This document shows, one piece after another, positions 4,026 to 52,660 of a stretch of DNA of 64,000 nt (its first letter is position 1; each line of letters starts with the position of its first letter). The translations under genes were made by a program, and so were the position numbers. Under the pieces are notes generated by a model, which worked only from the letters and a program-made list of their open reading frames with translations, was not told where the DNA came from and did not search any database. This stretch comes from Gammaproteobacteria bacterium (GTDB lineage: Bacteria > Pseudomonadota > Gammaproteobacteria > Steroidobacterales > Foliamicaceae), in the NCBI GenBank assembly GCA_028821145.1, contig JAPPHC010000023.1, positions 5,305 through 69,304 on the forward strand, read 5' to 3'.

Positions 4026-5159
4026 ATGCGCGAACCGCAGCCGCACCGCTTGGCGCCGCTCGTCGATCTCGCCACCCGGATCGTCCGGCTGCTGGCCTGG
4101 CTAGCGATGTTCGCCGCCTGCTGCGTGATGCTGTGGATCCTGTCGGGGACGGCGGCCCGAGCTGATGACCCGAAGGACGCGGCACGGCAGGTCGGCCGGG
4201 CCGGCGCGGCCCAGGCCGGGGCGATCGCGCGCGATGGGGCCAACGCGCAAGCGGTTCCCGGCTTCGCCGGGACGAACGTCCCCGAGCGCCATCTGACCGA
4301 CGCCGGCATGGAAAACGCCACGCGACGGCGGCTGGCGGATCCGGACGATCCCGGCGGCTCGGCCGGGCGCGCGGTGATCGACGGTGCGGCTGCCCGGCCC
4401 GCCGCCCCGGTTCCGGCCAACGACCCCGCCGTGGCACGCGCCCGGGCCGTGCAGTCCGCGCCGGAAGATGCCGGCCACCGCGCCAGTGGTCTCGCCTCGG
4501 GCGGCTCGGCGGACTGCGCCGCCGGCGTGACCGACGCCGGGCGCGGGGGGGCGTGCGGACGCGCTTCGTACTGCGTCGGCGCCGGCTGCGAGACCGTCGA
4601 GTCGAGGAGCAACACCGGCTTCGCCCGCTCGGCGGCCATGCTGAACATGGTGGTCGAGATGGGCGGCGACGAGTTCGACCGCAACGATCTCAGGTTCTTC
4701 TCCGGCGAAGAACGCACCTGCGAGATCAAATTTGCGGGACTGGCCAATTGCTGCCGGGACTCCGGGCTGCTGGTGGGGCTCGCGAATTGCTCGGCCGAGG
4801 AGAAGGAACTCGCCGAGGAGCGCCACGCCGGCAACACCCATTATCTCGGGCGGCGCTGCGCCAAGCGGGTGTTCGGCGTGTGCGTGAAGCGCGAGCGCGC
4901 CTGGTGCCTGTTCGGCTCCAAGCTCGGGCGCATCCTGCACCAGCAGGCGCGCCCGCAGCTCGGCATCGGCTGGAGCCACTGCGAGGGGTTCACGGTCGGC
5001 CAGGTCGAGCGCATCGACTTCGACCGATTGAATTTGTCCGAGTTCACGGAGAACCTGGAGGACGGCGCGCGAGAACCCGCGGTTGTCCTGCCCGAGAAGG
5101 GCGGCACGCAGAACGACATGGCCGAGCGCGTGCGCCGCCTGCGCGGAGAGAACCCGTGA
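4026..5159 (+). CDS. traN: Type-F mating-pair stabilisation protein TraN
   Basis: Cys-rich C-terminal half (GAGCETVESRSNTGF, FAGLANCCRDSG, LANCSAEEKELAEERHAGNTHYLGRRCAKRVFGVC, ERAWCLFGSKLGRILHQQ) is typical of TraN. An in-frame GTG at 4017 overlapping the upstream stop is an alternative start. Confidence 0.8.
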   Translation: MREPQPHRLAPLVDLATRIVRLLAWLAMFAACCVMLWILSGTAARADDPKDAARQVGRAGAAQAGAIARDGANAQAVPGFAGTNVPERHLTDAGMENATRRRLADPDDPGGSAGRAVIDGAAARPAAPVPANDPAVARARAVQSAPEDAGHRASGLASGGSADCAAGVTDAGRGGACGRASYCVGAGCETVESRSNTGFARSAAMLNMVVEMGGDEFDRNDLRFFSGEERTCEIKFAGLANCCRDSGLLVGLANCSAEEKELAEERHAGNTHYLGRRCAKRVFGVCVKRERAWCLFGSKLGRILHQQARPQLGIGWSHCEGFTVGQVERIDFDRLNLSEFTENLEDGAREPAVVLPEKGGTQNDMAERVRRLRGENP

Positions 5160-5971
5160 CGCCCGGGCGCTTGTTTCGCTTGTTCGCATCGGCGCTTTGT
5201 CTGGCGGCGATCCTTTGCTCTCCCGCCGCATCGGCGGCGGGAGAGTGGCGCGGCTGGTGCGGGCAGCCGGGCGCGGAAGCCCGACTCGGCTGGCACTTCT
5301 ACTGCGACCGGGAGGAAGACGAGACCGAGTATGGGCTCGAATCGGTCGACCCCGGAGCGTCGGCATCCTCGATCCAACGCATCGAGTCCATCCGCCGGGC
5401 GCTGGAGGAATCCCGCGCGGCGGCGATCCTCGATCCCTCGCCCGCGAAGGTGGGGGCGTATCTCCGCCTTCAACGGGAGACGTTGCAGCGCGCGGCCGCG
5501 TTCTCCGACGCGTTCCGGCGCACCGTCTGGGCGACGCCGGACCTGGACTACACCATGACGCGCCCCGTGGGCGCGCTGGCCAAGCAACTGTGGTCCGACG
5601 CGCGGCGGGACGAGCGCGACGCGGCGCTACGCAACTTGGCCGAACGCTACGGGCTGATCTACCTCGGCCACCCGGCCTGTTCGGAATGCCGGGTGTTCGG
5701 GCCGCTGCTGCGCGCGTTCGCCCTGCGCCACGGGCTGGACGTGCTGGCCGTGTCGATGACCGGCGAGGCGCTGGAGGGCTGGCCGGAGGCGGTGCCCGAC
5801 CACGGGCGCGCCGCGGCGCTCGGCCTCGACGGCGCGCCCACGCCGGCGGTCGTCCTGTTCGACGCCGAAACCCGACAAGTCCTGCCCGTCGGGTTCGGGG
5901 TGCTCGCCGAGGATGCGCTCGCCGAGCGCATCTTCGTCCTCACCCAACGGGAGACCGGCCATGACTACTAA
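5156..5971 (+). CDS. traF: TraF-like thioredoxin-fold pilus assembly protein (CXXC retained)
   Basis: GTG start overlapping the traN stop, signal peptide. YGLIYLGHPACSECRVFGPLLRAFALRHGLDVLAVSMTG is the TraF/TrbB thioredoxin-like core with a CSEC motif. Confidence 0.75.
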   Translation: MTPGRLFRLFASALCLAAILCSPAASAAGEWRGWCGQPGAEARLGWHFYCDREEDETEYGLESVDPGASASSIQRIESIRRALEESRAAAILDPSPAKVGAYLRLQRETLQRAAAFSDAFRRTVWATPDLDYTMTRPVGALAKQLWSDARRDERDAALRNLAERYGLIYLGHPACSECRVFGPLLRAFALRHGLDVLAVSMTGEALEGWPEAVPDHGRAAALGLDGAPTPAVVLFDAETRQVLPVGFGVLAEDALAERIFVLTQRETGHDY

Positions 5972-38202: not shown

Positions 38203-39579
38203 TCAGGCCGCGATGGCGATGCGCTCGCCCCAGGGCGCGCGGGCGAAGTCAGAGGGCGGGTCCGACCAGTCGATCCAGAGCACCGGATAATCCGGCTCGG
38301 TGTCCGGGTAGCGCGAGCACTCCATGTCCGTGAAGTACAGGCACGCGCCGGGTCGGATGCCACGTTCGTCGAGCCAGGCGAAGCCGGGCCGGAAGTCGGT
38401 GCCGCCGCGACCGCGCACGACGACCTCCTCGGGCAGGTCCAACGCGGAGAGCTCCGCCGCGTGGCGAACGGCGGTGTCGACCTGCAGCAAGACGACGCGC
38501 TCGGGCTGGATGTCGGCGGCGATCTCGCGCACCTCGGTCCAGAACTCGGAGAGCGTGCGCGCGGGCAGCGAGCCGGACGTGTCGATGATGACGGCGAGGG
38601 TCCCGATGCCCTCGGAGCGGATCGACGGCAGGTACAGCCCGCTGTCGATGAAGCGCCGGTTGGGCGCGCTCCACGAATAGTCGCTCTTGGCGGCGTCGGC
38701 CATGTAGCGGCGCAGCAGGGCGCGCCAATCGAGTTTCGTGACATGGGCGCTGCGCACGGTTTCTTTCACGGCGCCGGGTAGCTTGCCCTCGGCCTTGGCG
38801 AGGCTCGCCGCCTGGTGCATGGCCTCGTCCCAGGCCTGTTCCTCGGCGGTTACCTCGGACGGCGACAGCCCGGCATCCGACCCCCGGGTGCCGTCGGCCG
38901 CGGGCGCGTCCATGACCTCGCCGGTGCCCGACGGGTCATGGCTCGGCGGGGCGTCGCCGGACGCGTTCGATGGGCTCCGGCCCGGCTCGGCGCCAGCGTC
39001 GGAGCGTGGGTCGGAGTTTGTGCCGCATGGATCGTTGCCGGTGTCGCCAGCGGATCGATCATTGCCCTGTTCCGCTTCGGGTTGTCCACCCGATCCACCC
39101 GATGACGGACTGGACAAGGAGGAGTCGGTGCTTGTTGAAGGCGGCGCTGGGTTGCCGGCATCGCCGTCTTCGTCCGGCTCCGGCAGCCGGTCGTAGGCTT
39201 CCTCCACGCTCAGGCCTTCCCAGGCTTCGGCGTCGGGCGGCAGCGTGAATCCCGCGTCGCGCAGCAGGGGATGGGTCACGAGCTGCGAGGCGCGCTGCCA
39301 GCGCTCCGGATCCCGGTCCCGGCGCCGCGTGTGGTGCTTGAGCGCGCAGGCGAGGACCGCGCGGGCGATGGCCGCCTCGATCGCGTGGGCGGCGGTCTCG
39401 GCGACCCAGGCGGGCGAGTAGCGGATCTCCCGGCCGTCGCTCGCCAGTGTCTTGCGGGACGGATCGGCGCGCAGCGGCAACCGCAATGCGAGGCTCCCGA
39501 AAAACGGCTGCTTGCGCAGCAGCTCCGTGACGCAGGCGCTGACGCGCCGGGCGGACTCCGACTGGATGCCCGCGTTCAT
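38203..39579 (-). CDS. VWA-domain protein with degenerate metallopeptidase-like N-domain (DUF2201-type)
   Basis: N-terminus LLRKQPFFGSLALRLPL. VWA MIDAS motif VIIDTSGSL near the C-terminus. A ~115-aa Ser/Pro/Asp/Gly-rich linker lies between them. The expected HExxH position reads RAVLACALKHH. ATGA overlap with the upstream gene. Confidence 0.8.
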   Translation of the reverse strand: MNAGIQSESARRVSACVTELLRKQPFFGSLALRLPLRADPSRKTLASDGREIRYSPAWVAETAAHAIEAAIARAVLACALKHHTRRRDRDPERWQRASQLVTHPLLRDAGFTLPPDAEAWEGLSVEEAYDRLPEPDEDGDAGNPAPPSTSTDSSLSSPSSGGSGGQPEAEQGNDRSAGDTGNDPCGTNSDPRSDAGAEPGRSPSNASGDAPPSHDPSGTGEVMDAPAADGTRGSDAGLSPSEVTAEEQAWDEAMHQAASLAKAEGKLPGAVKETVRSAHVTKLDWRALLRRYMADAAKSDYSWSAPNRRFIDSGLYLPSIRSEGIGTLAVIIDTSGSLPARTLSEFWTEVREIAADIQPERVVLLQVDTAVRHAAELSALDLPEEVVVRGRGGTDFRPGFAWLDERGIRPGACLYFTDMECSRYPDTEPDYPVLWIDWSDPPSDFARAPWGERIAIAA

Positions 39580-40478
39580 CACGCCGCCGCCCGCGGCGCT
39601 TCGGCCGCCTCCCCGAAATACCCCGCGAATTGCTCCATCAGCGCGTCGGCGTCGCGCTTGACCCGCCGGCGGGCCGCCGGATCGAACGTTCTGGACGGGC
39701 GCAGCGCGTCCGGCTCGACGCTGGCGATTCTCTCCTTCACCTGCTCGCACAGCCGCGCCAGTTCCCCGTCGCCGAAGATGTTGAGACGGGGCACGACGTC
39801 GACCAGGTCGCGGATGTTCTCGATCATGGAGTTGCGGAACACCAGCGGCTTGCCGTCGCCGTCCTCGCGCAACCGGTCGGAAACCCGTTCGACCGCCTCG
39901 CCGAGCCGGCGGTACAGGTCGCCGACGGCGCCGTGCAGCCGCTCCTCGACCTGGCTTTCGATATCCCGCTTGACCCGCTCGGTGTCGTCGCCGGCGAGCC
40001 TGGCGATGAAGTGGTCGGCGTCGGGCACCGCGGAAATGCGGTAGCGGATGGAGAACTTGCTCTTGAGCGCGGCGCTTGAGGGGTAGTCCCCGATGCGGAA
40101 CAGCCGCCCGAGGTCCAGCCGCGCCCGCTCGATGTTGTCCTCGTAGTCCTCGACGAACCGGGCGCGCTCCCGCACCATCTTCTCGCACAGCCCGTCCATG
40201 AGTTCGGTGTAGCGCTCGTAGTTGGCCACGGTGAGCAGCCGCGCGCCCTTGTCGTCCCAGGGCAGGGTCTGCTCGTAGTGCGCGGTCCTGGCGCGGCTCA
40301 CCGTGGCGGTGAGCGCCGCGAACGCCTCCTTCGGCAGCAGGCGCTTGTTGTAGCGGCCCGCGCTGGTGGCCGCCTCGTGGTGCGCGGCGACGTGCGCGCT
40401 CGCGTCGCGGTCGTAGAGCCGCCCGGACCAGGCGGCGATTCTGAGCGACACCAGCATGGCGTCGGAATTGAGGTCCAT
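39579..40478 (-). CDS. DUF3150-like protein
   Basis: Perfect RBS AAGGAGG 7 nt upstream of ATG 40478 (MDLNSDAMLVSLRIAAWSGRLYD). Gene order with the MoxR-like ATPase and VWA protein is as in many plasmids. The DUF number is from memory. Confidence 0.65.
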   Translation of the reverse strand: MDLNSDAMLVSLRIAAWSGRLYDRDASAHVAAHHEAATSAGRYNKRLLPKEAFAALTATVSRARTAHYEQTLPWDDKGARLLTVANYERYTELMDGLCEKMVRERARFVEDYEDNIERARLDLGRLFRIGDYPSSAALKSKFSIRYRISAVPDADHFIARLAGDDTERVKRDIESQVEERLHGAVGDLYRRLGEAVERVSDRLREDGDGKPLVFRNSMIENIRDLVDVVPRLNIFGDGELARLCEQVKERIASVEPDALRPSRTFDPAARRRVKRDADALMEQFAGYFGEAAEAPRAAA

Positions 40479-40492
40479 GAAAGCCTCCTTGG

Positions 40493-40639
40493 TTATCGGA
40501 GCGTCCACTCGGGGACACGGAGGGCGGCGGCGAGCTTGCGCTTCGCGGCCTCCAGGGTCGGGGCGCGCACCTCGTACTCGCGCGAAGGCGCGTCGCCGGC
40601 GGGGTAGTGCAGGATTCGCCAGACCGGGGTCGGCGCCAT
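40493..40639 (-). CDS. Small hypothetical protein (48 aa)
   Basis: ATGA overlap with the MoxR-like gene stop. Sequence MAPTPVWRILHYPAGDAPSREYEVRAPTLEAAKRKLAAALRVPEWTLR has balanced composition. Confidence 0.4.
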   Translation of the reverse strand: MAPTPVWRILHYPAGDAPSREYEVRAPTLEAAKRKLAAALRVPEWTLR

Positions 40640-41664
40640 CACCGCGTCCTCGCGGCGGCCCAGCGGATGAACGCGGGGGTGCGCTGCAGGGCCGGGTCGC
40701 GCCGAATGCACGAACCCACCAGGAACTCCCCCACCTCCCGGCGCAGGCGCTGCGCGTAGGTCACGATGGCGTCGAGGTTCACGTCGCTGGCCAGCCGGTA
40801 GAGCGAGCCGCACAGCGCGATCAGGGCGCTGGCGTTGTCCGGCACGTCGGCGTTGTCCGGATCGTCGAGCACGGCGCGAGGGTGCGGCAGTTCCCGCCAG
40901 ATCTGGAGGAACGCGCAGAACTCGATCGCCGCGGCCTCGCCGACGGCGCCGCGCAACAGCGCCCGCTCGGCGCCGGGTTCGAGGCCGTTGCGGCGCTTGA
41001 CGATGCCGCTGGCGAACTCCCAGGTCCGGGGGCACGCGAACGCGCGCTCGCGCGACCGCGGATCGAAGGTGTGCAGCAGGTCGGGCCGAAGCTGGATGAA
41101 GAACAGCACTTCCGGGGCGATGCCGTGCGCAGCGCCCCAGGCGCACCAGTCCCCGGCGTCCACCTTGATCTCCAGGTGCACGAACCGGGAGGCCAGCGGC
41201 GTCGGCATCCGGTTCACGACGCCGCGGTCGCCCTCCCGGTTGCCGCAGGCGATCAGCGAAGCGCCCTCGGGCAGCTCGTACTCGCCGACCTTGCGGTCGA
41301 GCACCAGTTGATACAGCGCGGCCTGGACCATCGGCACCGCCGAGGGCAGTTCCTCGAGGTTGATGAGCCACGAGCCGGCATCGTCGGAAGGGGGCAGGAA
41401 CGCCGGCGGCGCCCACCGGGTGCGGCCTTCGGGATCGCGCCAGGGGATGCCGCGAAGATCGACAGGGTCCAGCAACAGGGCGCGCACGTCGACGTAGGTG
41501 CGTCCGGCGGCCGCCGCGACCTGTTGGGCGATCTGCGACTTGGCCGCGCCGGGCGGGCCCCAGACGATACAGGGCTGGCGCGCCTCGACCAGCAGGGACA
41601 GCGTCGAGGCCAGTTCGCTCGGGCGGAGCGTGTAGTCCGCGGACACGGAATCGGGTTCGGTCAT
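40639..41664 (-). CDS. MoxR/CobS-like AAA+ ATPase
   Basis: Walker A VWGPPGAAKSQIA, Walker B-like WLINLEELPSA, sensor region IACGNREGDRGVVNRMPTPLASRF. Confidence 0.9.
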   Translation of the reverse strand: MTEPDSVSADYTLRPSELASTLSLLVEARQPCIVWGPPGAAKSQIAQQVAAAAGRTYVDVRALLLDPVDLRGIPWRDPEGRTRWAPPAFLPPSDDAGSWLINLEELPSAVPMVQAALYQLVLDRKVGEYELPEGASLIACGNREGDRGVVNRMPTPLASRFVHLEIKVDAGDWCAWGAAHGIAPEVLFFIQLRPDLLHTFDPRSRERAFACPRTWEFASGIVKRRNGLEPGAERALLRGAVGEAAAIEFCAFLQIWRELPHPRAVLDDPDNADVPDNASALIALCGSLYRLASDVNLDAIVTYAQRLRREVGEFLVGSCIRRDPALQRTPAFIRWAAARTR

Positions 41665-41820
41665 GGATGGGCTCCGGGTGGGTGGAAACGGAACGCGGAC
41701 GCCCTCCGGCGTCCGGCCTTCGCCCGGCCCGAGGCCCGACTCGCCTCGCGGAGGCGCGCCGCGGGGAGGTGAAACGCGGGAAGGGGTTGGCGGGAACGGG
41801 AGGCCGGACCTGTGGCGCCG

Positions 41821-42651
41821 CTACACGCGGGGGTCCGCATCGGCGGGCGCGGCCGGAACGCCGGTCAGCGCCGGCAGGGGGAGGCGCGTGGGCGAGAGCG
41901 TGTGGCCGATGCGCCGCTCCAGCGCAACATAGCGGCGGTACAGGTCGGGGCGAAGCTGGGCGGCCCGCGCGAGATCGGCGCGCGACGCGAGGATGCAGAA
42001 CGAGCACGACAGCCGCGACATGCCGGCGGCGTAGGCCCAATGGGGCGACTGGCCGGCGTCGGCGATGACCTGGAATACCTCTGCGGTCGACAGGCGGTGG
42101 ACTGGCAGCCAGTCGAACCACTCGCGGCCGGCCCGGCTGTTGCGGTCGTTGCGCTTCCAGGGATCGCGCTTGGCCCGCGCCGGGCTCTCGTCCGCCCGCA
42201 TTCCCATGGCGCTGACAATGCGTCCGCCGAAGCGCGAATGGGCTTTCAGGTAACGGCGCAGCTCGCGCTCGATCGGACCGCGCTTCCAGCCGGCGGTGCA
42301 GTAGCGACGCGCCGAATCGGGAAAACGGCCCCGGTCCTCGATGCCTTCGAGCAGTGTCTTGCCGGACGCGACGGGCGCCAGGATCAGCGGCACGCCCGGT
42401 GGAATCGTCGCCTCGATATGCTTGATCGTGCCGGGCCACTCCACCTCGCCCAACGGGGCGTGGACGATCAGCAGTTGCCCGCGCGGGACGATCCGCGAAA
42501 GCAGGATCGTCATGGCCTGGCTGTCCTTGCCGCCGGAGGAACTGATCGCGACGAGGGCGCCGTTGCGGATCATCGCCCGGCACTCGGCGGGGAGGAAGAG
42601 CTCGGCGCTGGGGCGGGTCCGGCGCGGGCGTCGAGGGAGGGGACCGCTCAC
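41821..42651 (-). CDS. PAPS-reductase-family (adenine-nucleotide alpha-hydrolase) protein
   Basis: PP-loop VAISSSGGKDS. GTG start overlapping the radC stop (GTGA). C-terminal Cys pair RLSCSFCILAS. Confidence 0.8.
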   Translation of the reverse strand: MSGPLPRRPRRTRPSAELFLPAECRAMIRNGALVAISSSGGKDSQAMTILLSRIVPRGQLLIVHAPLGEVEWPGTIKHIEATIPPGVPLILAPVASGKTLLEGIEDRGRFPDSARRYCTAGWKRGPIERELRRYLKAHSRFGGRIVSAMGMRADESPARAKRDPWKRNDRNSRAGREWFDWLPVHRLSTAEVFQVIADAGQSPHWAYAAGMSRLSCSFCILASRADLARAAQLRPDLYRRYVALERRIGHTLSPTRLPLPALTGVPAAPADADPRV

Positions 42652-43151
42652 AGCCAGCCGCGTTCGGCCATGGAAACCGCCCGCCCGTCGGTGACCACGA
42701 GGTGGTCGACCAGGCGCATGTCGACCAGCGCCAGCGCCCCGCCGAGCTTCTCGGTCAGGGTGCGGTCCGCGTCGCTGGGCTCGGCCACCCCCGACGGGTG
42801 GTTATGGAAGGCGATCACGGCCGCGGCGTCGCGTTCGAGCGCCTGCTGCACGACCACGCGCGTATAGACCGTCGCCCCGTCGATGGTGCCGTTGAAAAGT
42901 TCAGCGATCTCGATCAGGCGCAGACGGGTGTCGAGAAAAATGACGCCGAAGACCTCGTTGCGCCGGCCGGCGAGCTTCAGGCGCAGGAAATCCGCGATGT
43001 CCCGCGGAGACTTCAGGAGGCGGCCGGGCCGCTGGCGCTGCTTGAGCACGGCCAGCGCGAGGGAGACGACGGAGGACTTCTCGCACTTCGAGAGCGAGGC
43101 GGGCGTGAGGGCTTGGAAGCGGTTGTCGACGGCGGTTGTGGATGCGGTCAT
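42648..43151 (-). CDS. radC: RadC-like JAB/MPN-domain protein
   Basis: RBS AGGAG upstream of ATG 43151. JAMM motif AFHNHPSGVAEPSDAD. Confidence 0.9.
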   Translation of the reverse strand: MTASTTAVDNRFQALTPASLSKCEKSSVVSLALAVLKQRQRPGRLLKSPRDIADFLRLKLAGRRNEVFGVIFLDTRLRLIEIAELFNGTIDGATVYTRVVVQQALERDAAAVIAFHNHPSGVAEPSDADRTLTEKLGGALALVDMRLVDHLVVTDGRAVSMAERGWL

Positions 43152-43521
43152 GGCGTAAAGGCTCCTGGACGGGCGGGAGGAAGGAACATCGGAGTCCGTC
43201 CCGGGCTCGGACGGCGTGCACACACGCGCCAGCCCCCCGGGGCTCGCCCCGTCCGGGCCGGCCTCCGACTCCTCATGGCGCACCAGGCCGGCCGCTTCGT
43301 CCGGGACGGGCGACACGCGGGAATCCACTGTCCTCCAGGAGAGGGCGCGGCGGGACTGTGGGTTGGCGGCGCGCCGGGCCGGACAGTGCCATGGGGCGAC
43401 CGAGGAGCCTCCCGATCGTGGGCAGGCTCCCGCCGAGTTGCGAGCGCCTCGCGTGGCAGGGCGATGGTAGGATGCCGGGGTTTTTTCAGGAGAGGACAGT
43501 GGACGGCGGAAAGAGGGTCCG

Positions 43522-44403
43522 ATGCGCGTGACGCCGGCGATTTCGGTCATTGCCGTTCTGCTCGCGGCGGGCTCGGTGGCCAGGGCAGCGGACGCCGGGT
43601 CGGCGCGGTCAGGGTGGTATCTGGGCGCTGGCCTTGGCGCGGGATGGACCTCCGACCTGACGCAGGAAGGCTGGAACCGGGACCGCTTCTGCACCCCGGA
43701 CGCGGCGTGTTTCGACGAAGTGCCGATCCCCGCCGTGTCGGGCTACCGCTGGCGCTACGACATCGCACTGGACAGCGGCGCGGCGTTCGAACTGTCCCTC
43801 GGCCGGTTCTTCGGACGAACCCGGCTGGAGCTGGCGGTCGCGCAGCGGACGAACGACACCCGCCAGACGTTCGCAGGCATCGCCTACCTCGACGGCTCGG
43901 CCATCCGGCCTCGGGCCGGCGGCACCGTCGCCTCCAATGGACGCGGCGCGATCGACCGCCGGCGCGTGCGTTCCGTTACCCTGGAGGCCTATTACGATTT
44001 CCCGAACGCCTGGGGTGCGCTCACGCCGTTTGTCGGCGCCGGGCTCGGGCAGTCGTCCGTGGAAATGGCCGGCGTGCGGTTCTCCACCGACTACCGCAAC
44101 GTGTCCGCCGCGGCCGAGGTCCACGACCCGCCGCTCTCGTTCTACAACAGCGCGCAGGACGAGGACCTGAACGACACCGCGTTCGTCTGGCGGGTGCACG
44201 CCGGGGCGGACTACGCGCTGGGCCGCAGGACCTCGTTGGGGTTGCGGCTGAGCTGGTCGGCGACCGGAGATTTCGAGGACAGCGGGACCTACAAGACGCA
44301 CCCGATGCATGGCGTGGACCCTGCCTTCACGAACACCAATACGTTCAGCGGTGGGCGAAGCTGGACCCTCGTGCTCGCGTTCAGGCGCGGGATCGGCGAA
44401 TGA
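43522..44403 (+). CDS. Outer-membrane beta-barrel protein (OmpW/OMP_b-brl-like)
   Basis: Signal peptide ending ARA-AD. GWYLGAGLGAGW first strand, alternating-hydrophobic strands. Cys pair FCTPDAAC in the first loop. Confidence 0.7.
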   Translation: MRVTPAISVIAVLLAAGSVARAADAGSARSGWYLGAGLGAGWTSDLTQEGWNRDRFCTPDAACFDEVPIPAVSGYRWRYDIALDSGAAFELSLGRFFGRTRLELAVAQRTNDTRQTFAGIAYLDGSAIRPRAGGTVASNGRGAIDRRRVRSVTLEAYYDFPNAWGALTPFVGAGLGQSSVEMAGVRFSTDYRNVSAAAEVHDPPLSFYNSAQDEDLNDTAFVWRVHAGADYALGRRTSLGLRLSWSATGDFEDSGTYKTHPMHGVDPAFTNTNTFSGGRSWTLVLAFRRGIGE

Positions 44404-44488: not shown

Positions 44489-45424
44489 ATGGGCAATCGG
44501 CGGTCCCCGCGCAGGCACTTCGCCGTGCTGCTCGCGTTCCTGGGCGCAACGCTTCTGCCCGCGCAAGCGCAGGCCGAGCCGCTTTATGCGAGTGTTTCGC
44601 TGGGCGGCAACGTCACCGGCGACGTCACGCTGCGCAGCCGCAGCAACGATCGCGCCAGCATCTGCGACGAATACATCAACCCGCGGGCGTTGTCGGTGCC
44701 CGGCTGCACCGCGCCGGGCCGCGGTGCGGGGGACGGATGGGCCGCGCCGTTCGACGGCGGCCGGGGTTTCTCCACCGAAGCGGCACTGGGGTATCGCTTT
44801 TCGCCGCGATTCAGGGCGGCCGTCGTCTACGGTTACCACACGACGCATTTCGATCAGACCGTGTCCTCAACCGACGCCTCGGGCGTCGACTTCGACAAGA
44901 TCGGCAACGAACTGTCCACGGGCGAGGAGTCGCTGGGTACGGCGAGTTCCCACGAACTGTTCGCCGTCGCTTATCGCGACTGGCCCAACCGCAGCCTGTG
45001 GACGCCTTTCGCCGGCGTGGGAGTCGGCGTTGCGAAGGCGCGCAAGGACTTCTCCTGGCTCTGGGCACGGAGCGCCAACCCGGACGACATCCTCACCGGG
45101 CGCGACCAACCCAACGCGGAAGAGATTCTCGGCAATCTCGCCGGAACGGTCAGCACGGGCCGCTCGGCGCTCAAGGACACCATGACCGGATTCCTCGTGC
45201 TCGCGGGCGCCTCACGGCCCGTTTCGGACACGGTTACCGTGGCGTTCAAGGTCCAGTGGACCCGATTCGCCGCGTTCGAGTCCGGGGCTTACGGGGGCGG
45301 CGTGCTGCGCAGCCACCCGCCGAACCTGCGCCTGGACGGCAGCGAGCCGGTGTCCACCTGGACAAGGACCGAGGACACGGACCGGTACTCCATCGTGCTG
45401 ACGATGCGGTTCACCTTGCCGTAA
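44489..45424 (+). CDS. Outer-membrane beta-barrel protein, paralogue-like
   Basis: Signal peptide ending AQA-EP. LYASVSLGG first strand, Cys pair ICDEY...VPGC. Beta-strand periodicity to the C-terminus (YSIVLTMRFTLP). Confidence 0.7.
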   Translation: MGNRRSPRRHFAVLLAFLGATLLPAQAQAEPLYASVSLGGNVTGDVTLRSRSNDRASICDEYINPRALSVPGCTAPGRGAGDGWAAPFDGGRGFSTEAALGYRFSPRFRAAVVYGYHTTHFDQTVSSTDASGVDFDKIGNELSTGEESLGTASSHELFAVAYRDWPNRSLWTPFAGVGVGVAKARKDFSWLWARSANPDDILTGRDQPNAEEILGNLAGTVSTGRSALKDTMTGFLVLAGASRPVSDTVTVAFKVQWTRFAAFESGAYGGGVLRSHPPNLRLDGSEPVSTWTRTEDTDRYSIVLTMRFTLP

Positions 45425-45672: not shown

Positions 45673-46848
45673 ATGCTGACGTTCACCGAAGAGATCCTGC
45701 TGCTGCTCGGCGACGACGAGGGCGCGTTCCTGCCGATCCGGGAACACGCCTTCGAGTGCGCGCTGGCCGGCGCGGCGCTGATGGACCTGGCGTTCGCTTA
45801 CCGCATCGACACCGACCTCGAGTCCCTGCTTGTCATCACCTCGGAGCCGACCGGCAATCCCATGCTCGACGCGGTTCTCGCCCGGATCGCTTCCCATCCG
45901 GACGCGGCGGACACGCAGCACTGGATCCGGGTGCTGTCCACCGAGGACGCGGCCGCGATTCGCGAGCAGGCGCTCGCGAGCCTCGTCGAACACGGCATTC
46001 TGGAGCGGCGCGAGGAGCGGTTCCTGTGGGCGTTCGGCTCCGTTCGCTATCCCACACTCGATAACGGCGCCGAGCGGGAGATCAAGGCACGCATCGCACG
46101 CGCGCTCGACGACTTCATCCCCGACCCCCGCGACATAGCCCTGATCTCGCTGGCCGACGCCTGCCAGATCCTGCCCGAGCTCTTCCCGGACCGGAATATC
46201 GAGCCCGCCAGGATCGCGCAGTTGCGAAGGATGGACCTGATCGGCCGCGAGGTCGCCGGGACGATTGCCGACATACAGCGCACGATCGTGCGCGCCGCCC
46301 AGGCTCAGGCGCAACGCACCCAGAAACGGCTGCTGTCGCTCTCAATCGCCGCGGCCGTGGGCGCCGCGGCCGTGCTGCTCGCCCCCCGCATCCCGGCGCC
46401 GGACCGATTCGACCCCGGCGTTCTGGAGCTTTTCTGGTTCGACGGGTTCTGGCAGCAATGGAGCGGCTACCTGCTGCTGGCGTTCAGCATCGCCGGACTT
46501 GTCATCGGCGTGGCCGTCAGAAAGCGGCTCGTATCCGGCATCGCCGGCTTGCGCCGGTGGCGTCTCGCCCACATCGTCATCGGCGTCGCCTGCGTGCTCG
46601 CGCTGTTCGCCCATACCGGCTTTCGCCTCGGCGTCAACGTCAACGCGGCGCTCATGGGGTTCTACCTCGCCACGCTCCTTTCCGGCGCGCTCGCCGGCGT
46701 CGCGATCGGCGCCGTGCACCGGCTCCGCCAAGCGGGGATCGGCCGGACCGGCCAACCGCGCCGCGTCCTGCTGTGGCTGCATGTCGCGGCCATCTGTCCG
46801 CTGCCGGCGCTGCTGGCCGTGCACATTCTCGCGACGTACCTGTACTGA
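45673..46848 (+). CDS. GPP34/GOLPH3-like domain fused to a 5-TM four-histidine (dihaem-b-like) membrane domain
   Basis: N-terminus MLTFTEEILLLLGDDEGAF...LAGAALMDLA is GPP34-like. The C-terminal TM helices carry HIVIGVACVLALFAH and HVAAICPLPALLAVH (His i/i+14 in each of two helices). Confidence 0.7.
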   Translation: MLTFTEEILLLLGDDEGAFLPIREHAFECALAGAALMDLAFAYRIDTDLESLLVITSEPTGNPMLDAVLARIASHPDAADTQHWIRVLSTEDAAAIREQALASLVEHGILERREERFLWAFGSVRYPTLDNGAEREIKARIARALDDFIPDPRDIALISLADACQILPELFPDRNIEPARIAQLRRMDLIGREVAGTIADIQRTIVRAAQAQAQRTQKRLLSLSIAAAVGAAAVLLAPRIPAPDRFDPGVLELFWFDGFWQQWSGYLLLAFSIAGLVIGVAVRKRLVSGIAGLRRWRLAHIVIGVACVLALFAHTGFRLGVNVNAALMGFYLATLLSGALAGVAIGAVHRLRQAGIGRTGQPRRVLLWLHVAAICPLPALLAVHILATYLY

Positions 46849-46857
46849 GCGCCCCGG

Positions 46858-48372
46858 GTGTCGTCGAAGGCCGTTTTCTGGTGGGTGGGAACAACGCTGC
46901 TCGTCGCAGCGTACGTTGCGGCCACGATGGTCGTGGGCGGCGATCGCCGCGCGCTTCTCATCGGCAGGACCACCGATGCCCACCATCAGATCGAGATGGC
47001 CTGCGAGACCTGCCATGCGGCGGGTCCGTTCGCCGGGGCGGCGGCGGCCGAGACGGCGCTGAACGAGACCTGCCGAACCTGCCATGAGGACGAGTTGAAT
47101 GCCGCCGACGACAGCCACCCCCGCTCGATGTTCCGCAACCCGAGAATGGCGGCCTACTGGGAGAAACTCGATGCGCGCCTGTGCACGAGCTGTCACGGCG
47201 AACACCGGCCCGAGATCACCCGGACGGGCGCGGTTACGGTCGCGATGGACTTCTGCGTCGCATGCCACTCCGACGGCGAGCAGGATGTCCGGTTGGATCG
47301 ACCCAGCCACGCGGGCGTCGCCTTCGAGACCTGCGCCACGGCGGGTTGCCACAACTACCACGACAACCAGGCGCTGTACGAGGAGTTTCTGGTCGAACAC
47401 GCCGGCGAACCGGCGCTGAAGCCCGGGCCCGTGCATGCAACGGCCGCGCGTTTGCGTGCGCTTCAACCGCCTGGTGGAACGGCGCTCGAACGCGACGACG
47501 CGATCGCGCCCGCAGCCGCCCTGGCCGACACGACAGTGCTCGCTCGGTGGACGGGTTCGGACCATGCGGCTGCGGGCGTGAATTGCACCGCGTGTCACGC
47601 GGTGGATCCCGCCGCCGAGTCCGGGCCGGCTGACATTGCGGCCCGGTCCGGGCCCACCGACGTTGCGGCCCAATGGGTCGAGACGCCGTCAACCGGAACG
47701 TGCAAGTCCTGCCACGAACCGCAGGCACGGTCCTTTGCCAGGGGCCGGCACGGCATGCGCGAACATCCCGGCATCGCACCGCCGCGCAACCCGATGGAAG
47801 GACTGGAGCGGATCGGCTTGTCCCGCGTGCTGCCAGCGATCGTGGCCGACTGGCTCGCCGATCCTGTCCCGCCCACACGCATGACCGTGGGCGAGGCGCG
47901 CCTGCCGATGCGCGGCGACGCCGAGGCGCACCGGGCGCTCGATTGCGGCGCCTGTCACCGGCCCCACGACGTGGACACTGCGCTGGCGGCCGTCGAAGCC
48001 TGTGCCTCCTGTCACGACGACCGGCACACGCGCGCCTACGACGGCAGCCCCCACCACCGGCTTTGGCAGGCGGAGTTGTCCGGCGAAGCACCGCCCGGCG
48101 CCGGCGTGAGTTGCGCGACCTGCCACATGCCCGGGACCGAAAGTCGCGACACGGTCACGACCGACCACAACCAGAACGACACGCTGCGCCCGAACGAGAA
48201 GATGATCCGGTCCGTCTGCCTCGACTGCCACGGGCTTGAGTTTTCGCTCGACGCGCTGGCCGACGCCGGTCTGATCGGCCGCAACTTTACCGGGATCCCG
48301 GCGGTTCACGTCGAGAGCGTGGAATGGGCCGTGCGGCGTTCCGCTGCGGACAGGCCTGGCACGGCCCGTTGA
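46858..48372 (+). CDS. Membrane-anchored multihaem cytochrome c (11 haem motifs)
   Basis: GTG start 9 nt after the upstream stop, N-terminal TM anchor. Ten CXXCH motifs (CETCH, CRTCH, CTSCH, CVACH, CTACH, CKSCH, CGACH, CASCH, CATCH, CLDCH) plus one CX4CH (CATAGCH). Confidence 0.9.
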   Translation: MSSKAVFWWVGTTLLVAAYVAATMVVGGDRRALLIGRTTDAHHQIEMACETCHAAGPFAGAAAAETALNETCRTCHEDELNAADDSHPRSMFRNPRMAAYWEKLDARLCTSCHGEHRPEITRTGAVTVAMDFCVACHSDGEQDVRLDRPSHAGVAFETCATAGCHNYHDNQALYEEFLVEHAGEPALKPGPVHATAARLRALQPPGGTALERDDAIAPAAALADTTVLARWTGSDHAAAGVNCTACHAVDPAAESGPADIAARSGPTDVAAQWVETPSTGTCKSCHEPQARSFARGRHGMREHPGIAPPRNPMEGLERIGLSRVLPAIVADWLADPVPPTRMTVGEARLPMRGDAEAHRALDCGACHRPHDVDTALAAVEACASCHDDRHTRAYDGSPHHRLWQAELSGEAPPGAGVSCATCHMPGTESRDTVTTDHNQNDTLRPNEKMIRSVCLDCHGLEFSLDALADAGLIGRNFTGIPAVHVESVEWAVRRSAADRPGTAR

Positions 48373-48426: not shown

Positions 48427-48990
48427 ATGAAACACAGGAAACTCTTGATCGCCACCGGGTTCGCGCTCGCCGCCGTAACCGCGATGGGGGCCGCAGCCCA
48501 GGGAATTCCCTACGCGAAAGTCGCCGACATGCTCTACCGGGTCATGTCGGCGGATCGCGAGGTCTATACCCGCTTGGTGGTGCAACGGCTCACGGTCGAC
48601 GAGGAGATCCTCACCGCATCGGAGCACTTCGAGGACGAGGCGGCGCTGCCGCTGCCGGCGCAGATGTTCCGCTTCGGCGCCGAAACCGTGATGGACAACA
48701 CCGAGGACTTCTCCTACGCCCTGCTCTCGCTCGATCCGATCAACAGCAACAATGGACCTGTGACGGAACTGGAGCGTGAAGGTCTGCAATTCGTTGCCGA
48801 GAACCCGGACGAGAACTTCTACGGCGAGGAGGAACTGGGCGGCGAGCGGTACTTTGCGGCGGTGTACGCGGACCGCGCAGTCGCCGAAGCCTGCATCGAG
48901 TGCCACAACAACCACAGGGACTCGCCGCGAACCGGCCTTGAGGTGGGCGACGTGATGGGGGGCGTGGTCATCCGCATCCGCCTCGATTGA
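48427..48990 (+). CDS. Periplasmic mono-haem protein (DUF3365/Tll0287-like)
   Basis: RBS GAGGAG, signal peptide (AVTAMGAAAQG). Single CIECH near the C-terminus in the context AVAEACIECHNNH. Confidence 0.75.
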   Translation: MKHRKLLIATGFALAAVTAMGAAAQGIPYAKVADMLYRVMSADREVYTRLVVQRLTVDEEILTASEHFEDEAALPLPAQMFRFGAETVMDNTEDFSYALLSLDPINSNNGPVTELEREGLQFVAENPDENFYGEEELGGERYFAAVYADRAVAEACIECHNNHRDSPRTGLEVGDVMGGVVIRIRLD

Positions 48991-50049: not shown

Positions 50050-51255
50050 TTATCGTGCCGGCCCCGGTGCGTCTGTCTCCCCATGCAAATCCGCCCGCAG
50101 GCTCTCGGCGACGCGCGCGGCTGACGCCTTCACCGAGTCCCGCGCCAAGTGCGCGTAGCGGGCGGTGGTCTGTACCTTCCCGTGGCCCAACAGCTTGCCG
50201 ATCATCGGCAGGCTCTCGCCCAGCGCCAGCGCACGGGACGCGAATGAGTGCCGGAGATCGTGAATGCGAACGTCTTTCAGATCGGCGCGGGTCCGGATGA
50301 CCTGCCAGGCGCTGTTGATGTTGGTGACGCGCCGGCCCGGCTTCGTACCGGCGATCACCCAGGGATTGCCGGGCACGCGCGGCAGGCCCTCCAGAACCCG
50401 CCGGGCGGAGGGCGAAATCGCCACCGCCCGCGCGCCCGTCTTGGCGTCGCGCAGCCGAAGCTCGCCAGCCTCGAGATCCACGTCCTCCCAGCGCAGCGTC
50501 AGAATCTCGGTCTTGCGGCACCCGGTCAGCATCAGCAGACGAAACGCCGCCACCGCGCTTGGATGCACCTTGCCCTCGGCCTCGACCTCGCCGAGCACCC
50601 GGCCCAGACGCTTGAACTCCTCCTCCGACAGAAAACGCTCGCGGGGCAGCTCGGCGTACTTGCGGACGAACCGGCAGGGATTGCCGCCCTCCGGGGCAAT
50701 CCCCCACAGTTCGGCCATGTTGAACAGCCGCGACAGCATATCCACCACCTTGTTCGCCATGGTGGGCGTCTCGTGCAAGCTGTAGTGCAGGGCCGCGACG
50801 CGCTCGCGCCCGATCCGTCCGAGCCGGACGTTGCCCAGCGCGGGCAGCAGGTGGCGGTCGAGGATGTCGCGGCATTGCCGTCGCGTCGCCGGCTTGCAGC
50901 GCACCGCGACATGCTCGGTCATGAACCGTTCGGCCACTTCGGCCACGGTGGGACCGGCGTCCGCCGGGGCTGCGCCATTGTGCAACACCGGCTCGTTGCC
51001 GGCCTTGATGTCGGCGATGATCTGCGCCGCCTTGCGCCGAGCCTGCTCCGCCGTGATCAGGCCATGGCGCCCGACCTTCAGTCGGCGGGACCTGCCGCCC
51101 GCGCGGGTCTGGACCAGATAGACCTTGGATCCCGAGGGATAGACCCTCACCCCGAAGCCGGAGAGCGACGAGTCCCAGTAGACCGCCTCGCGGTCGCCCG
51201 CCGGCAGCGCCTCGACCGTGCGCTTGGAAATCGATCTTCGTCGGAGCTTCGCCAT
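50050..51255 (-). CDS. int: Tyrosine site-specific integrase (P4-like, DUF4102-type arm-binding N-terminus)
   Basis: The N-terminus has YWDSSLSGFGVRVYPSGSKVYLVQTR. Catalytic region has VRIHDLRHSFAS and LGHGKVQTTARYAHL. GGAG RBS lies inside the 3' end of the upstream integrase. Confidence 0.9.
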   Translation of the reverse strand: MAKLRRRSISKRTVEALPAGDREAVYWDSSLSGFGVRVYPSGSKVYLVQTRAGGRSRRLKVGRHGLITAEQARRKAAQIIADIKAGNEPVLHNGAAPADAGPTVAEVAERFMTEHVAVRCKPATRRQCRDILDRHLLPALGNVRLGRIGRERVAALHYSLHETPTMANKVVDMLSRLFNMAELWGIAPEGGNPCRFVRKYAELPRERFLSEEEFKRLGRVLGEVEAEGKVHPSAVAAFRLLMLTGCRKTEILTLRWEDVDLEAGELRLRDAKTGARAVAISPSARRVLEGLPRVPGNPWVIAGTKPGRRVTNINSAWQVIRTRADLKDVRIHDLRHSFASRALALGESLPMIGKLLGHGKVQTTARYAHLARDSVKASAARVAESLRADLHGETDAPGPAR

Positions 51256-51259
51256 CGCG

Positions 51260-52429
51260 CTACTCCAGGATGTCCGCGCCGATGCTGTCGGCGACCTTCG
51301 CGGTGGAGGCCTGGATGGACTCCCTCGCCAGATGCGCGTAGCGCGCGGTGGTGTTCACCTGCCGATGACCGAGCAGCTCCCCGATCATCGGCAGACCCTC
51401 GCCGATGGCGAGGGCGCGGGAGGCGAAGGTGTGGCGCAGGTCATGGAGGCGCACATCGTCGAGGCCGGCGCGGCGGCGGACGCGGTCCCAGGAATCGTTG
51501 ATGTTGACCTGGTGCGTGCCCTTCCTCTTGCCGGGGAACACCCACGGATTGCCGTCGATCCTCGGTAGTTCGGCCAGCACCTCTGCGGCGGCCGGCGGCA
51601 TCGGCACAACCCGCCCGCCGGTCTTGCTGTCCCTCAGCCGCATCTCGCCGGCCTCGAAATCGAGGTCGTCCCAGGCCAGACCCATGATCTCGTTCCTGCG
51701 GCAACCGGTCAGCACCAGCAGGCGGATCGCCGCCGCCGCGTGCCGCGAGGCCAGATGCTCGGCGGGGGCATTCTCAAGGACGCGCCCGAGCCTCGCCAGC
51801 TCCTTCGGCGTCAGGAACCGCTCCTTGCGCCGAACGACCTTGTAGCGGCGAACCGACTTGCAGGGATTGCGGCCCGGTGGACGCATCTCCCAAAGTTCCG
51901 CCAGATTGAACATCTTGACCAGGATGTCCACGCAGCGGTTGGCCACCGTGGGCATGTCGCTCAACTGGTACTGGAACTTGAGAATCTCCCTGCGCTCCAC
52001 CTCGGCCACCTTGAGTCCCCCGAGCCGCGGCACGATGTGCTTGTTCAGCATCAGGCCGTAGTGCTTGATCGTATTGGGCTTGCAGTGCATCGCGACGTGC
52101 TCGCGCTGATACCGTCCGGCGAGATCGGACACCGTCGGCGGAGCCTCGGGTTCGCTCTCGACCGGGGGCAGGCCGGCCTTGATTCGCCCGATGATCTTCG
52201 CGGCGTCCTTGCGGGCCCGGTCCGGGGCGATGTCACCGTGACGGCCCACGGTGACCCGCCGGGACTTGCCCGCGACCCGCGTCTGCACCACGTAGACCTT
52301 GCGCCCGCTCGGATAGACCCGGACACCGTAGCCCGGCAGCTCCCGGTCCCAGAACACGGTATCCTTGTCGTCGACCGAGAGCCGGTCCACGGTGCGCTTG
52401 GACAAAGTGCGGTAGTTGGGCTGGGGCAT
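51260..52429 (-). CDS. int: Tyrosine site-specific integrase, second tandem paralogue
   Basis: Start MPQPNYRTLSKRTV at 52429. FWDRELPGYGVRVYPSGRKVYVVQTR, then VRLHDLRHTFAS and LGHRQVNTTARYAHL. The stop is 4 nt before the next integrase ATG. Confidence 0.9.
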   Translation of the reverse strand: MPQPNYRTLSKRTVDRLSVDDKDTVFWDRELPGYGVRVYPSGRKVYVVQTRVAGKSRRVTVGRHGDIAPDRARKDAAKIIGRIKAGLPPVESEPEAPPTVSDLAGRYQREHVAMHCKPNTIKHYGLMLNKHIVPRLGGLKVAEVERREILKFQYQLSDMPTVANRCVDILVKMFNLAELWEMRPPGRNPCKSVRRYKVVRRKERFLTPKELARLGRVLENAPAEHLASRHAAAAIRLLVLTGCRRNEIMGLAWDDLDFEAGEMRLRDSKTGGRVVPMPPAAAEVLAELPRIDGNPWVFPGKRKGTHQVNINDSWDRVRRRAGLDDVRLHDLRHTFASRALAIGEGLPMIGELLGHRQVNTTARYAHLARESIQASTAKVADSIGADILE

Positions 52430-52660
52430 TGCGTTCGTCGGTCGGGTTCGGGGTTCGGTTCGAGCCGGACTCGATTGCGCCGATTTACCGTAAGCGAATC
52501 GAAAGCGACCGGCTCGAAATATGAGCGTATTACATCGCATTTTTGGCGTCGGCGCAAGGGGCGAGGCAAGTCGGGAAGTGTATATTTATAGAGCATTTAC
52601 AATAATTTATACGGGTTCGGCGCACTCCGGCGCGTCCGAGGCAGAAGCTGGGAAAGAGTG

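Follow-up and report, generated by a model that had tools for sequence, protein, structure and literature searches.

Cytochromes b of the DUF4405, PepSY-like (FoxB) and MsrQ-like types are small helical membrane domains with four conserved histidines on two helices, for which two stacked b-haems and a transfer of cytoplasmic electrons to extracytosolic redox partners have been proposed. DUF4405 was shown to bind haem b (pyridine haemochrome) and is related to the PepSY/FoxB and MsrQ cytochromes (PMC11334425). The GPP34 domain is represented in eukaryotes by GOLPH3/Vps74, a phosphatidylinositol 4-phosphate (PI4P)-binding Golgi adaptor, and a survey of sponge symbionts, in which architectures were assigned by Pfam alone, reported this domain by itself and in GPP34-P450, GPP34-Rieske and GPP34-PotA architectures, and proposed a secreted GPP34 effector that manipulates host phagosomes (PMC11706023). 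Here, a gene uniting a GPP34 domain with a membrane domain that shares the above features of the DUF4405, FoxB and MsrQ-like cytochromes was analysed in a 64,000-nucleotide (nt) stretch of gammaproteobacterial DNA (contig JAPPHC010000023.1; the whole stretch is referred to as the window). Its product of 391 amino acids (aa) consists of an N-terminal GPP34 domain and a putative dihaem cytochrome b domain of five transmembrane (TM) helices, and the gene is the first of a conserved three-gene cassette, which also encodes an undecahaem cytochrome c and a Tll0287-like haem protein. It is considered probable that the fusion protein is a dihaem b subunit wiring the cytoplasmic face of the membrane to the undecahaem cytochrome.

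The fusion of a GPP34 domain to about five TM helices, as put forward in an initial annotation made from the DNA sequence, was confirmed as real. Residues 6-199 of the protein, the N-terminus of which reads MLTFTEEILLLLGDDEGAF, match PF05719 with an E-value of 4.2e-42 (144.9 bits at a cut-off of 29.1; profile positions 3-199 of 201). Among solved structures, a 46-member family profile matched human GOLPH3 (3kn1; E-value 1.5e-15) and yeast Vps74 (2zii; E-value 2e-11), the N-terminal 200 aa being clearly homologous to these adaptors. In AlphaFold2 (AF2) models, the GPP34 part is mostly helical, with a predicted local distance difference test (pLDDT) score of ~90, and residues D188 to E193 at its end are invariant across 46 homologues. 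The C-terminal 180 residues are hydrophobic and, when this domain was modelled alone from an alignment of 44 distantly related sequences (pLDDT 94.2; predicted template modelling score 0.88), five TM helices were predicted at residues 213-236, 258-281, 293-315, 323-353 and 361-390, the last of which is kinked at P376/P378. No signal peptide was detected in the fusion protein. The open frame extends in phase upstream to position 44737; this extension is not regarded as part of the fusion gene, since homologues begin at the Met of the 391-aa form. This start residue (M1) is conserved in 90% of 121 sequences, and the best 120 homologues are 390-393 aa long.

Two of the five helices each carry a pair of histidines 14 residues apart, exactly as they had been read in the initial annotation, namely HIVIGVACVLALFAH in TM3 (H300 and H314) and HVAAICPLPALLAVH in TM5 (H370 and H384). 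These four residues are conserved in 98-100% of 121 close homologues (identity down to 54%), among which H349 is not conserved, and in at least 99% of the 150 best TM-domain relatives (representatives at a clustering identity of 50%). Across 44 aligned TM domains with 28-61% identity to the query, they account for four of the 11 invariant columns, a pattern of candidate ligands that exceeds chance.

With regard to topology, 15 lysine and arginine residues fall in the segments assigned to the cytoplasm versus three on the periplasmic side, and because of this distribution the GPP34 domain was placed in the cytoplasm. An N-terminus inside the cell is also indicated by relatives (see below), since their TM domains carry an N-terminal flavoprotein that uses reduced nicotinamide nucleotides (NAD(P)H) and is necessarily cytoplasmic. 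Sequence and secondary structure show TM3 and TM5 to be parallel, both running in-to-out, with the histidine pairs in register rather than on different faces of the membrane; counted from the cytoplasmic side, H300 and H370 are found at a depth of 7-9 residues, and H314 and H384 sit close to the periplasmic side. Fourteen residues on a helix span ~21 Å, which is the inter-haem distance in cytochrome b. In agreement with the dihaem-b-type assignment made at the outset, the C-terminal domain would thus most likely bind two stacked b-haems, with H300 and H370 as ligands of the inner haem and H314 and H384 as ligands of the outer haem.

A profile search with the TM domain alone against 1.84 billion representative proteins retrieved 577 relatives with E-values of at most 1e-3 (401 at or below 1e-10), in which the TM domain is always C-terminal; a word-indexed search with the same profile returned close relatives only. 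When 44 members of the family were scanned one by one against Pfam at E-values up to 1, DUF4405 was matched by 26 (best E-value 2e-4), Ni_hydr_CYTB ('prokaryotic cytochrome b561') by 18 (best 5e-5) and Ferric_reduct by eight (best 2e-4), and the matches were almost exclusively to dihaem cytochrome b families. A kinship with DUF4405, cytochrome b561 or ferric reductases, for whose profiles the initial annotation had proposed a scan, was apparent as consistent matches across the 44 members, all of them sub-threshold. The domain is best described as a predicted divergent, unnamed five-TM member of the two-haem cytochrome b clan, and its 577 representative clusters bring to light an unannotated family of putative dihaem cytochromes b. 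It differs from the DUF4405, FoxB and MsrQ-like cytochromes in having five TM helices instead of six, in carrying a GPP34 head and in its partners, which are an undecahaem cytochrome c and a haem-Cache protein instead of flavinylated proteins, MsrP or siderophores.

The multihaem cytochrome gene begins 10 nt past the stop codon of the fusion gene, at position 46858. To place this arrangement in context, 83 loci encoding relatives of the fusion protein were collected. The order GPP34-TM gene, undecahaem cytochrome gene and Tll0287-like gene was retained on the same strand in ~73 of these, with a gap of ~10-16 nt between the first two genes, and the exceptions were mostly due to contig ends. The undecahaem cytochrome gene was located directly downstream in ~79 of the 83 loci, and a Tll0287-like gene downstream in 71. 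The earlier suggestion that the fusion protein works with the cytochrome encoded by the abutting gene gains support from this near-universal synteny, and from orthologous operons in which the same TM domain is headed by an electron-input module.

Such input modules represent the commonest context of the TM domain in the representative search, where it was mostly found in proteins of 640-720 aa (predominantly 650-690 aa). Immediately N-terminal to TM1, these relatives were shown by Pfam to possess Pyr_redox_2 (binding flavin adenine dinucleotide (FAD) and NAD), Rubredoxin_C and BFD-like [2Fe-2S] domains. This head corresponds to the N-terminal half of NirB (positions 1-467 of 794; NCBIfam, E-values 1e-117 to 1e-122), because of which the relatives are often mislabelled as 'nitrite reductase large subunit'. 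Compared with NirB, the FAD/NAD and BFD [2Fe-2S] portion is shared by this presumed ancestral form, whereas the five-TM dihaem domain stands where NirB has its sirohaem/[4Fe-4S] catalytic half; the window protein lacks the NirB head as well. Judged from its domain contexts, the TM domain is a module that has been repeatedly wired to a predicted cytoplasmic NAD(P)H-flavin-iron-sulfur input, following the logic of NADPH oxidases (NOX). The same logic, i.e. a cytoplasmic NAD(P)H-flavin module feeding a dihaem b wire, is encountered in NOX/FRE and MsrQ-Fre systems. In NOX/FRE, however, the dehydrogenase is C-terminal and of the FNR type, whereas the relatives have it at the N-terminus, as a NirB/rubredoxin-reductase module accompanied by a BFD [2Fe-2S] cluster, and the window protein is devoid of any dehydrogenase. 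One relative of 951 aa (P0249) was observed to carry EF-hands, a BFD [2Fe-2S] domain and FNR-type FAD_binding_6/NAD_binding_1 domains before the same TM domain, a layout reminiscent of the calcium-regulated NOX5.

Operons of this flavoprotein type were identified in Hartmannibacter diazotrophicus, Actibacterium ureilyticum, Acuticoccus sediminis and a metagenome-assembled genome (MAG) recorded as Flavobacteriaceae, as well as in seven metagenome loci. In all 11 loci with enough sequence, the flavoprotein gene is followed by genes for an undecahaem cytochrome (46-54% identical to that of the window) and a Tll0287-like protein (56-67% identical), and the order TM-domain gene, gene for an 11-haem cytochrome of ~500 aa and Tll0287-like gene of ~190 codons is also present in the flavoprotein-type loci L084-L092. 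A monohaem cytochrome c gene comes next in ~5 of eight flavoprotein-type loci, and a 150-aa globin is encoded in all eight in which the sequence extends far enough; this globin has no signal peptide and matches the globin domain of the nitric oxide (NO)-inducible flavohaemoprotein (E-value 4e-24). None of the flavoprotein, globin and monohaem cytochrome c genes was found within 6 kb of the GPP34-type cassette in the 83 loci. The window protein contains no FAD or NAD domain, and elsewhere in the 64-kb window such a domain was matched only over 40 aa at chance level. In a neighbour-joining tree, which is midpoint-rooted, has no bootstrap support and is indicative only, the GPP34-type TM domains form one clade located five nodes inside the flavoprotein-type radiation, beside P0129 and P0130; GPP34 is carried by only five of the 150 TM-domain representatives. 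In the simplest history, GPP34 would have taken the place of the NirB-type head once, the cytoplasmic globin would have disappeared and the periplasmic components would have been kept. The flavoprotein-type operon, which is apparently both widespread and undescribed, resembles a NOX-style system by which bacteria could export electrons from NAD(P)H, and its occurrence in cultured Alphaproteobacteria allows genetic testing.

The GPP34 domain was also found to be encoded separately. In locus L096, genes for a TM-only protein (201 aa, 54% identical to the TM domain of the query), an undecahaem cytochrome, a Tll0287-like protein and a stand-alone GPP34 protein (219 aa, 42% identical to the head of the query) follow one another, while L095 holds TM-only, Tll0287-like and GPP34 genes without the undecahaem cytochrome. 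Because these split operons encode GPP34 as a separate gene, it is regarded as a genuine subunit of the system; the occurrence of two domains fused in some genomes and separate in the same operon elsewhere constitutes classical evidence of a predicted physical and functional association. The RMDLIGREV motif is kept in the stand-alone GPP34 protein of L096, indicating that the RMDLIGRE motif is not a linker and represents a candidate contact with the membrane subunit. The head swap and the split-gene variant together amount to a natural experiment on how electrons enter such conduits. In L096, a gene for a DAO-type FAD oxidoreductase was observed after the GPP34 gene on the same strand. Locus L097, in which GPP34 and TM genes lie 10 nt apart, was set aside, since it is probably a frameshift in a 4x assembly. 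The features of the window and the related operons are listed below.

Table 1. Coordinates of the cassette features in the window, and of related operons (locus:positions)
Feature	Location	Strand	Basis or conservation
GPP34-cytochrome b fusion gene (391 aa, stop codon included)	45673..46848	+	ORF (open reading frame) and translation
GPP34/GOLPH3-like domain, residues 6-199, predicted cytoplasmic	45688..46269	+	PF05719 and GOLPH3 profile match
M-D-L-I-G-R-E motif, residues 187-193, last GPP34 helix continuing into TM1	46231..46251	+	conservation
Five-TM putative dihaem cytochrome b domain, residues 213-391	46309..46845	+	AF2 model, profile search
His300 codon, TM3 cytoplasmic side, proposed axial ligand of inner haem b	46570..46572	+	100% conserved
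His314 codon, TM3 periplasmic end, H-T-G motif, proposed outer haem b ligand	46612..46614	+	at least 99% conserved
His370 codon, TM5 cytoplasmic side, proposed second ligand of inner haem b	46780..46782	+	at least 98% conserved
His384 codon, TM5 periplasmic side, proposed second outer haem b ligand	46822..46824	+	at least 97% in close homologues, 100% in representatives
Membrane-anchored undecahaem cytochrome c, 504 aa, N-terminal anchor, proposed periplasmic partner	46858..48372	+	Pfam multihaem matches
Periplasmic Tll0287-like/sCache_haem monohaem c protein, 187 aa, signal peptide, CIECH	48427..48990	+	PF11845, E-value 2e-18
Flavoprotein-type operons	L084:7001-11814, L085:7001-11933, L086:6001-10714, L087:6001-11119, L088-L092		
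Split operons	L096:4001-7452; L095:4001-5973		

The initial annotation had ascribed a regulatory or lipid-binding role to the cytoplasmic head, of which the cytoplasmic placement is upheld by the distribution of charged residues, and the lipid-binding part is not. PI4P is contacted in GOLPH3 by W81, R90, R171 and R174, and the R90L substitution by itself abolishes PI4P binding (PMC3596250). When these residues are mapped through the profile alignment onto 121 sequences, the equivalent of W81 (position 23) is variable (R/Q/K/E), that of R90 (position 32) is Ala in 105 sequences, that of R171 (position 94) is variable and only that of R174 (position 97) is retained, as Arg in 103. With three of the four contact residues lost, binding of PI4P or other lipids was rejected as the default reading of the head, and a GOLPH3-like lipid-binding role appears unlikely. 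The window protein further differs from GOLPH3/Vps74 in that its GPP34 domain is tethered to the bacterial inner membrane via five TM helices and is encoded in a cytochrome operon.

The sponge-symbiont survey reported no membrane or cytochrome b fusion, and the 391-aa form would have fallen under 'GPP34 only' in its Pfam-only scheme (PMC11706023). Its GPP34 proteins (GPP34_S and fusions) stem from the same MAG sources (SB06xx, COS and RHO) and are likewise joined to redox proteins, whereas the secreted-effector idea misfits a GPP34 domain that is cytoplasmic and membrane-anchored in a respiratory-type operon. A literature search on GPP34 with cytochromes, Tll0287/DUF3365 with multihaem proteins, and NirB with multihaem proteins and globin found no description of the fusion or of either operon. 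The view that the fusion is undescribed is consistent with this result, and the view that it is unusual is not, as the family comprises more than 600 sequence clusters, nearly all of 390-393 aa and labelled only 'GPP34 family phosphoprotein'. The cassette thus provides the first operon-level functional context for bacterial 'eukaryote-like' GPP34, a protein to which attention had been drawn as a sponge-symbiosis factor and for which a secreted-effector role had been suggested, and presents it as a cytoplasmic subunit, membrane-tethered or separately encoded, of a cytochrome system. A dihaem b wire that feeds periplasmic c-type cytochromes belongs to an already known class of mechanism; the GPP34 head, the unnamed five-TM family, the conserved operon in both of its forms and the natural exchange of a dehydrogenase for GPP34 are new.

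In the mechanism proposed here, the fusion protein would be the inner-membrane subunit of a three-part redox module, in which electrons would pass one at a time, via the b-haems, between the cytoplasmic face and the 11-haem cytochrome c anchored in the membrane, that cytochrome acting jointly with the periplasmic haem-c Cache protein. In its ancestral form, the operon would have encoded a NirB-type NAD(P)H-FAD-[2Fe-2S] head and delivered electrons from NAD(P)H to the periplasm in a NOX-like manner. In one lineage, which would have spread horizontally mainly among apparent sponge symbionts, the flavoprotein head would have been exchanged for cytoplasmic GPP34, and the Hmp-like globin lost. The cytoplasmic RKR...WR loop and both ligand pairs are invariant within the GPP34 clade, which argues that the inner face is still in use. 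Since the NAD(P)H input module has given way to GPP34, the role of electron donor proposed in the initial annotation does not by itself account for where the electrons come from. GPP34 may serve as an adaptor, probably a non-catalytic one, by which a cytoplasmic reductase or ferredoxin encoded elsewhere is docked onto the inner haem, or by which access to this haem is gated; MsrQ-Fre sets a precedent for a dihaem b protein served by a soluble, unfused reductase. With no donor gene consistently linked to the cassette, the docking role is a conjecture, and docking or gating is put forward tentatively, as a possibility with less than an even chance of being correct.

That GPP34 is repeatedly found joined to proteins dependent on an electron donor (P450, Rieske and cytochrome b) is suggestive. 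Prokaryotic GPP34 could be an electron-input adaptor that docks a diffusible reductase or ferredoxin onto haem proteins, or could itself bear a cofactor, and the cassette and its NirB-headed ancestor could constitute a new NOX-like route; in this general form, the proposal is speculative and rather unlikely. If true, it would explain how GPP34 can substitute for an NAD(P)H-FAD-[2Fe-2S] module and why it is fused or linked to P450 and Rieske proteins, it would recast sponge-symbiont GPP34 from a secreted host effector to a component of redox chains, and it would define a new NOX-like route from cytoplasmic electrons to a periplasmic undecahaem enzyme.

Several observations weigh against the dihaem b explanation and the proposed part of GPP34 in it. 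The TM domain reaches no Pfam gathering threshold, the query itself scoring 13.5 bits against DUF4405 (PF14358; threshold 26.7 bits, E-value 0.11). Searched against PDB sequences, the TM-domain profile gave a chance match only (E-value 1.3), and a Foldseek search of the PDB with the high-confidence TM model returned generic helical bundles at best (E-value 0.23). In the full-length AF2 model, the TM part is poor (pLDDT 50-68). On the side of the head, no redox cofactor is known for GPP34, and a cofactor ligated by its conserved cysteines (C29, 95%; C164, 100%) is a weakened candidate, as the GPP34 protein of the split operon has Ile instead of C29. When every ORF flanking the cassette in the 83 loci was clustered, no recurrent flavoprotein or ferredoxin emerged; the only recurrent neighbour is an Rrf2 regulator (eight loci), and the remainder reflects lineage synteny. 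The missing Pfam match and the lack of a solved structural relative would fit a metal-binding or transport module in which the conserved histidines have no haem role, or a protein with a single haem. This interpretation is regarded as very improbable, given that two i/i+14 histidine pairs on two parallel helices represent cytochrome b geometry, that the family resembles only dihaem cytochromes, and that the TM domain is fused to FAD/[2Fe-2S] input modules and linked in operons to c-type cytochromes.

The main rival concerns the origin of the electrons. The dihaem b domain may draw on the quinol pool, as do NarI, FdnI, CybB and CbcL-type proteins, and feed the undecahaem cytochrome, GPP34 having no more than the role of a cap, structural or regulatory. 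Quinol feeds many periplasmic multihaem systems (CymA, NapC, NrfH and CbcL), the absence of a linked flavoprotein or ferredoxin gene in the 83 loci is in keeping with such a source, and 18 of the 44 family members show a weak likeness to quinone-reactive cytochromes b of the Ni_hydr_CYTB type. However, the closest relatives plainly receive their electrons from NAD(P)H by way of the fused [2Fe-2S] domain, with no need for a quinone, and no quinone site was identified. The invariance of both ligand pairs, including the cytoplasm-proximal one, and of the RKR...WR loop looks as if the inner face were used, and the retention of GPP34 even as a separate gene is hard to square with a mere cap. Feeding by quinol is considered somewhat unlikely; as no donor gene is consistently linked to the cassette, neither this explanation nor the docking adaptor is strongly favoured. 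Electrons could also flow inwards, with the undecahaem cytochrome and the haem-Cache protein oxidizing a periplasmic donor and the dihaem b domain passing the electrons on to an acceptor that GPP34 recruits in the cytoplasm. In principle, a dihaem b conduit can work in either direction, what obviously drove electrons outwards disappeared with the NAD(P)H module and the globin, and the haem-Cache subfamily of the operon lacks the Cys axial ligand of Tll0287 and may possess a substrate-reactive haem. Such a flow would nevertheless oppose the membrane potential, the orthologous operons of the flavoprotein type are geared to NAD(P)H oxidation, and no cytoplasmic acceptor is linked to the cassette, which makes inward flow improbable. 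A transmembrane redox or gas sensor, in which the haem-Cache protein and the cytochrome would signal via the b-haems to a cytoplasmic GPP34 adaptor, appears a little more improbable still. Cache_haem is a sensor family with some NO-binding members, although stand-alone Cache_haem proteins were judged to be redox-active and not sensory (bioRxiv 10.64898/2026.02.01.703092). Eukaryotic GPP34 is indeed an adaptor and an Rrf2-type regulator adjoins the cassette in eight loci and in L085, but a sensor would hardly need eleven c-haems and two b-haems, an NAD(P)H dehydrogenase drives the orthologous system, and there is no output domain.

As regards the partners of the proposed dihaem b subunit, the undecahaem cytochrome contains ten CxxCH motifs and one CX4CH motif, and all 11 haem motifs are conserved in 77 orthologues. 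The CX4CH motif reads CATAGCH (residues 159-165; window positions 47332-47352) and is kept in 77 of 77 orthologues. No close solved relative was found for this cytochrome, the sole match being a weak one of its last two haems to NrfA (E-value 0.002). A five-coordinate catalytic haem was considered and is not inferable, as 13 conserved extra histidines and five conserved methionines suffice as distal ligands. The Tll0287-like protein has one CxxCH motif, the two cysteines of which are its only ones in 75 of 77 sequences. The Cache_haem family, and the Cys/His axial ligation of the Tll0287 haem, have been described (bioRxiv 10.64898/2026.02.01.703092); lacking a third cysteine, the cassette protein cannot use this ligation. 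Conserved candidates for the distal ligand in the window protein and 76 orthologues are M80, H163, H67 and M35.

All 80 genome-scan records of the cassette are MAGs, which belong to Alpha- and Gammaproteobacteria, Gemmatimonadota and Binatia. Many bear sponge-microbiome bin names (SB06xx, COS or RHO) or names such as Candidatus Poriferihabitaceae, and from these record names many carriers appear to be sponge symbionts. Identities across classes are 83-86%, a value that fits horizontal spread. At least seven MAGs hold two or three divergent copies of the cassette, which suggests paralogous systems with different partners or substrates; a multi-copy, mobile cassette among apparent sponge symbionts suggests a selected periplasmic redox function in that habitat. 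Examples of multi-copy MAGs are those with L004/L016/L018 (one Defluviicoccus MAG), L026/L032/L046, L040/L064/L067 and L009/L022/L066, in which the cytochrome b genes are 49-85% identical to the query.

The setting of the cassette in the window looks like a genomic island. The G+C content is 0.66-0.69 over 44-50 kb, compared with ~0.72 upstream (22-44 kb) and ~0.65-0.69 downstream. Genes for a DUF2201 VWA/metallopeptidase-like protein, a 309-aa protein of unknown function, AAA_5, a PAPS-reductase-like protein and RadC are located on one side (38206-43301, reverse strand) and two tandem P4-type tyrosine integrase genes on the other (50050-52540, reverse strand); no tRNA gene was detected in the 64-kb window. 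Elsewhere, transposases, a TrwC relaxase and NikA adjoin the cassette, and in L097 and L002 it is flanked by similar genes (DUF2201, TrwC and transposase).

The Rrf2-family regulator, which has a three-Cys cluster motif, is encoded directly beside the cassette on the same strand in the eight GPP34-type loci and in the flavoprotein-type locus L085 (L085:6224-6652), and is absent from the window. It lies upstream of the cassette in L025 (~4976-5413), L026, L028, L030 and L032, and downstream in L009, L013 and L016. Together with the Hmp-like globin of the presumed ancestral operon, this regulator hints at a possible link to nitrosative or redox stress. Directly upstream of the cassette in the window, two outer-membrane beta-barrel genes are located on the forward strand (43522-44403, matching OMP_b-brl with an E-value of 1e-10, and ~44489-45424, with no Pfam match). 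Homologues of these (59-82% identity) adjoin the cassette at varying positions in its closest relatives only (L001, L004, L006 and L070).

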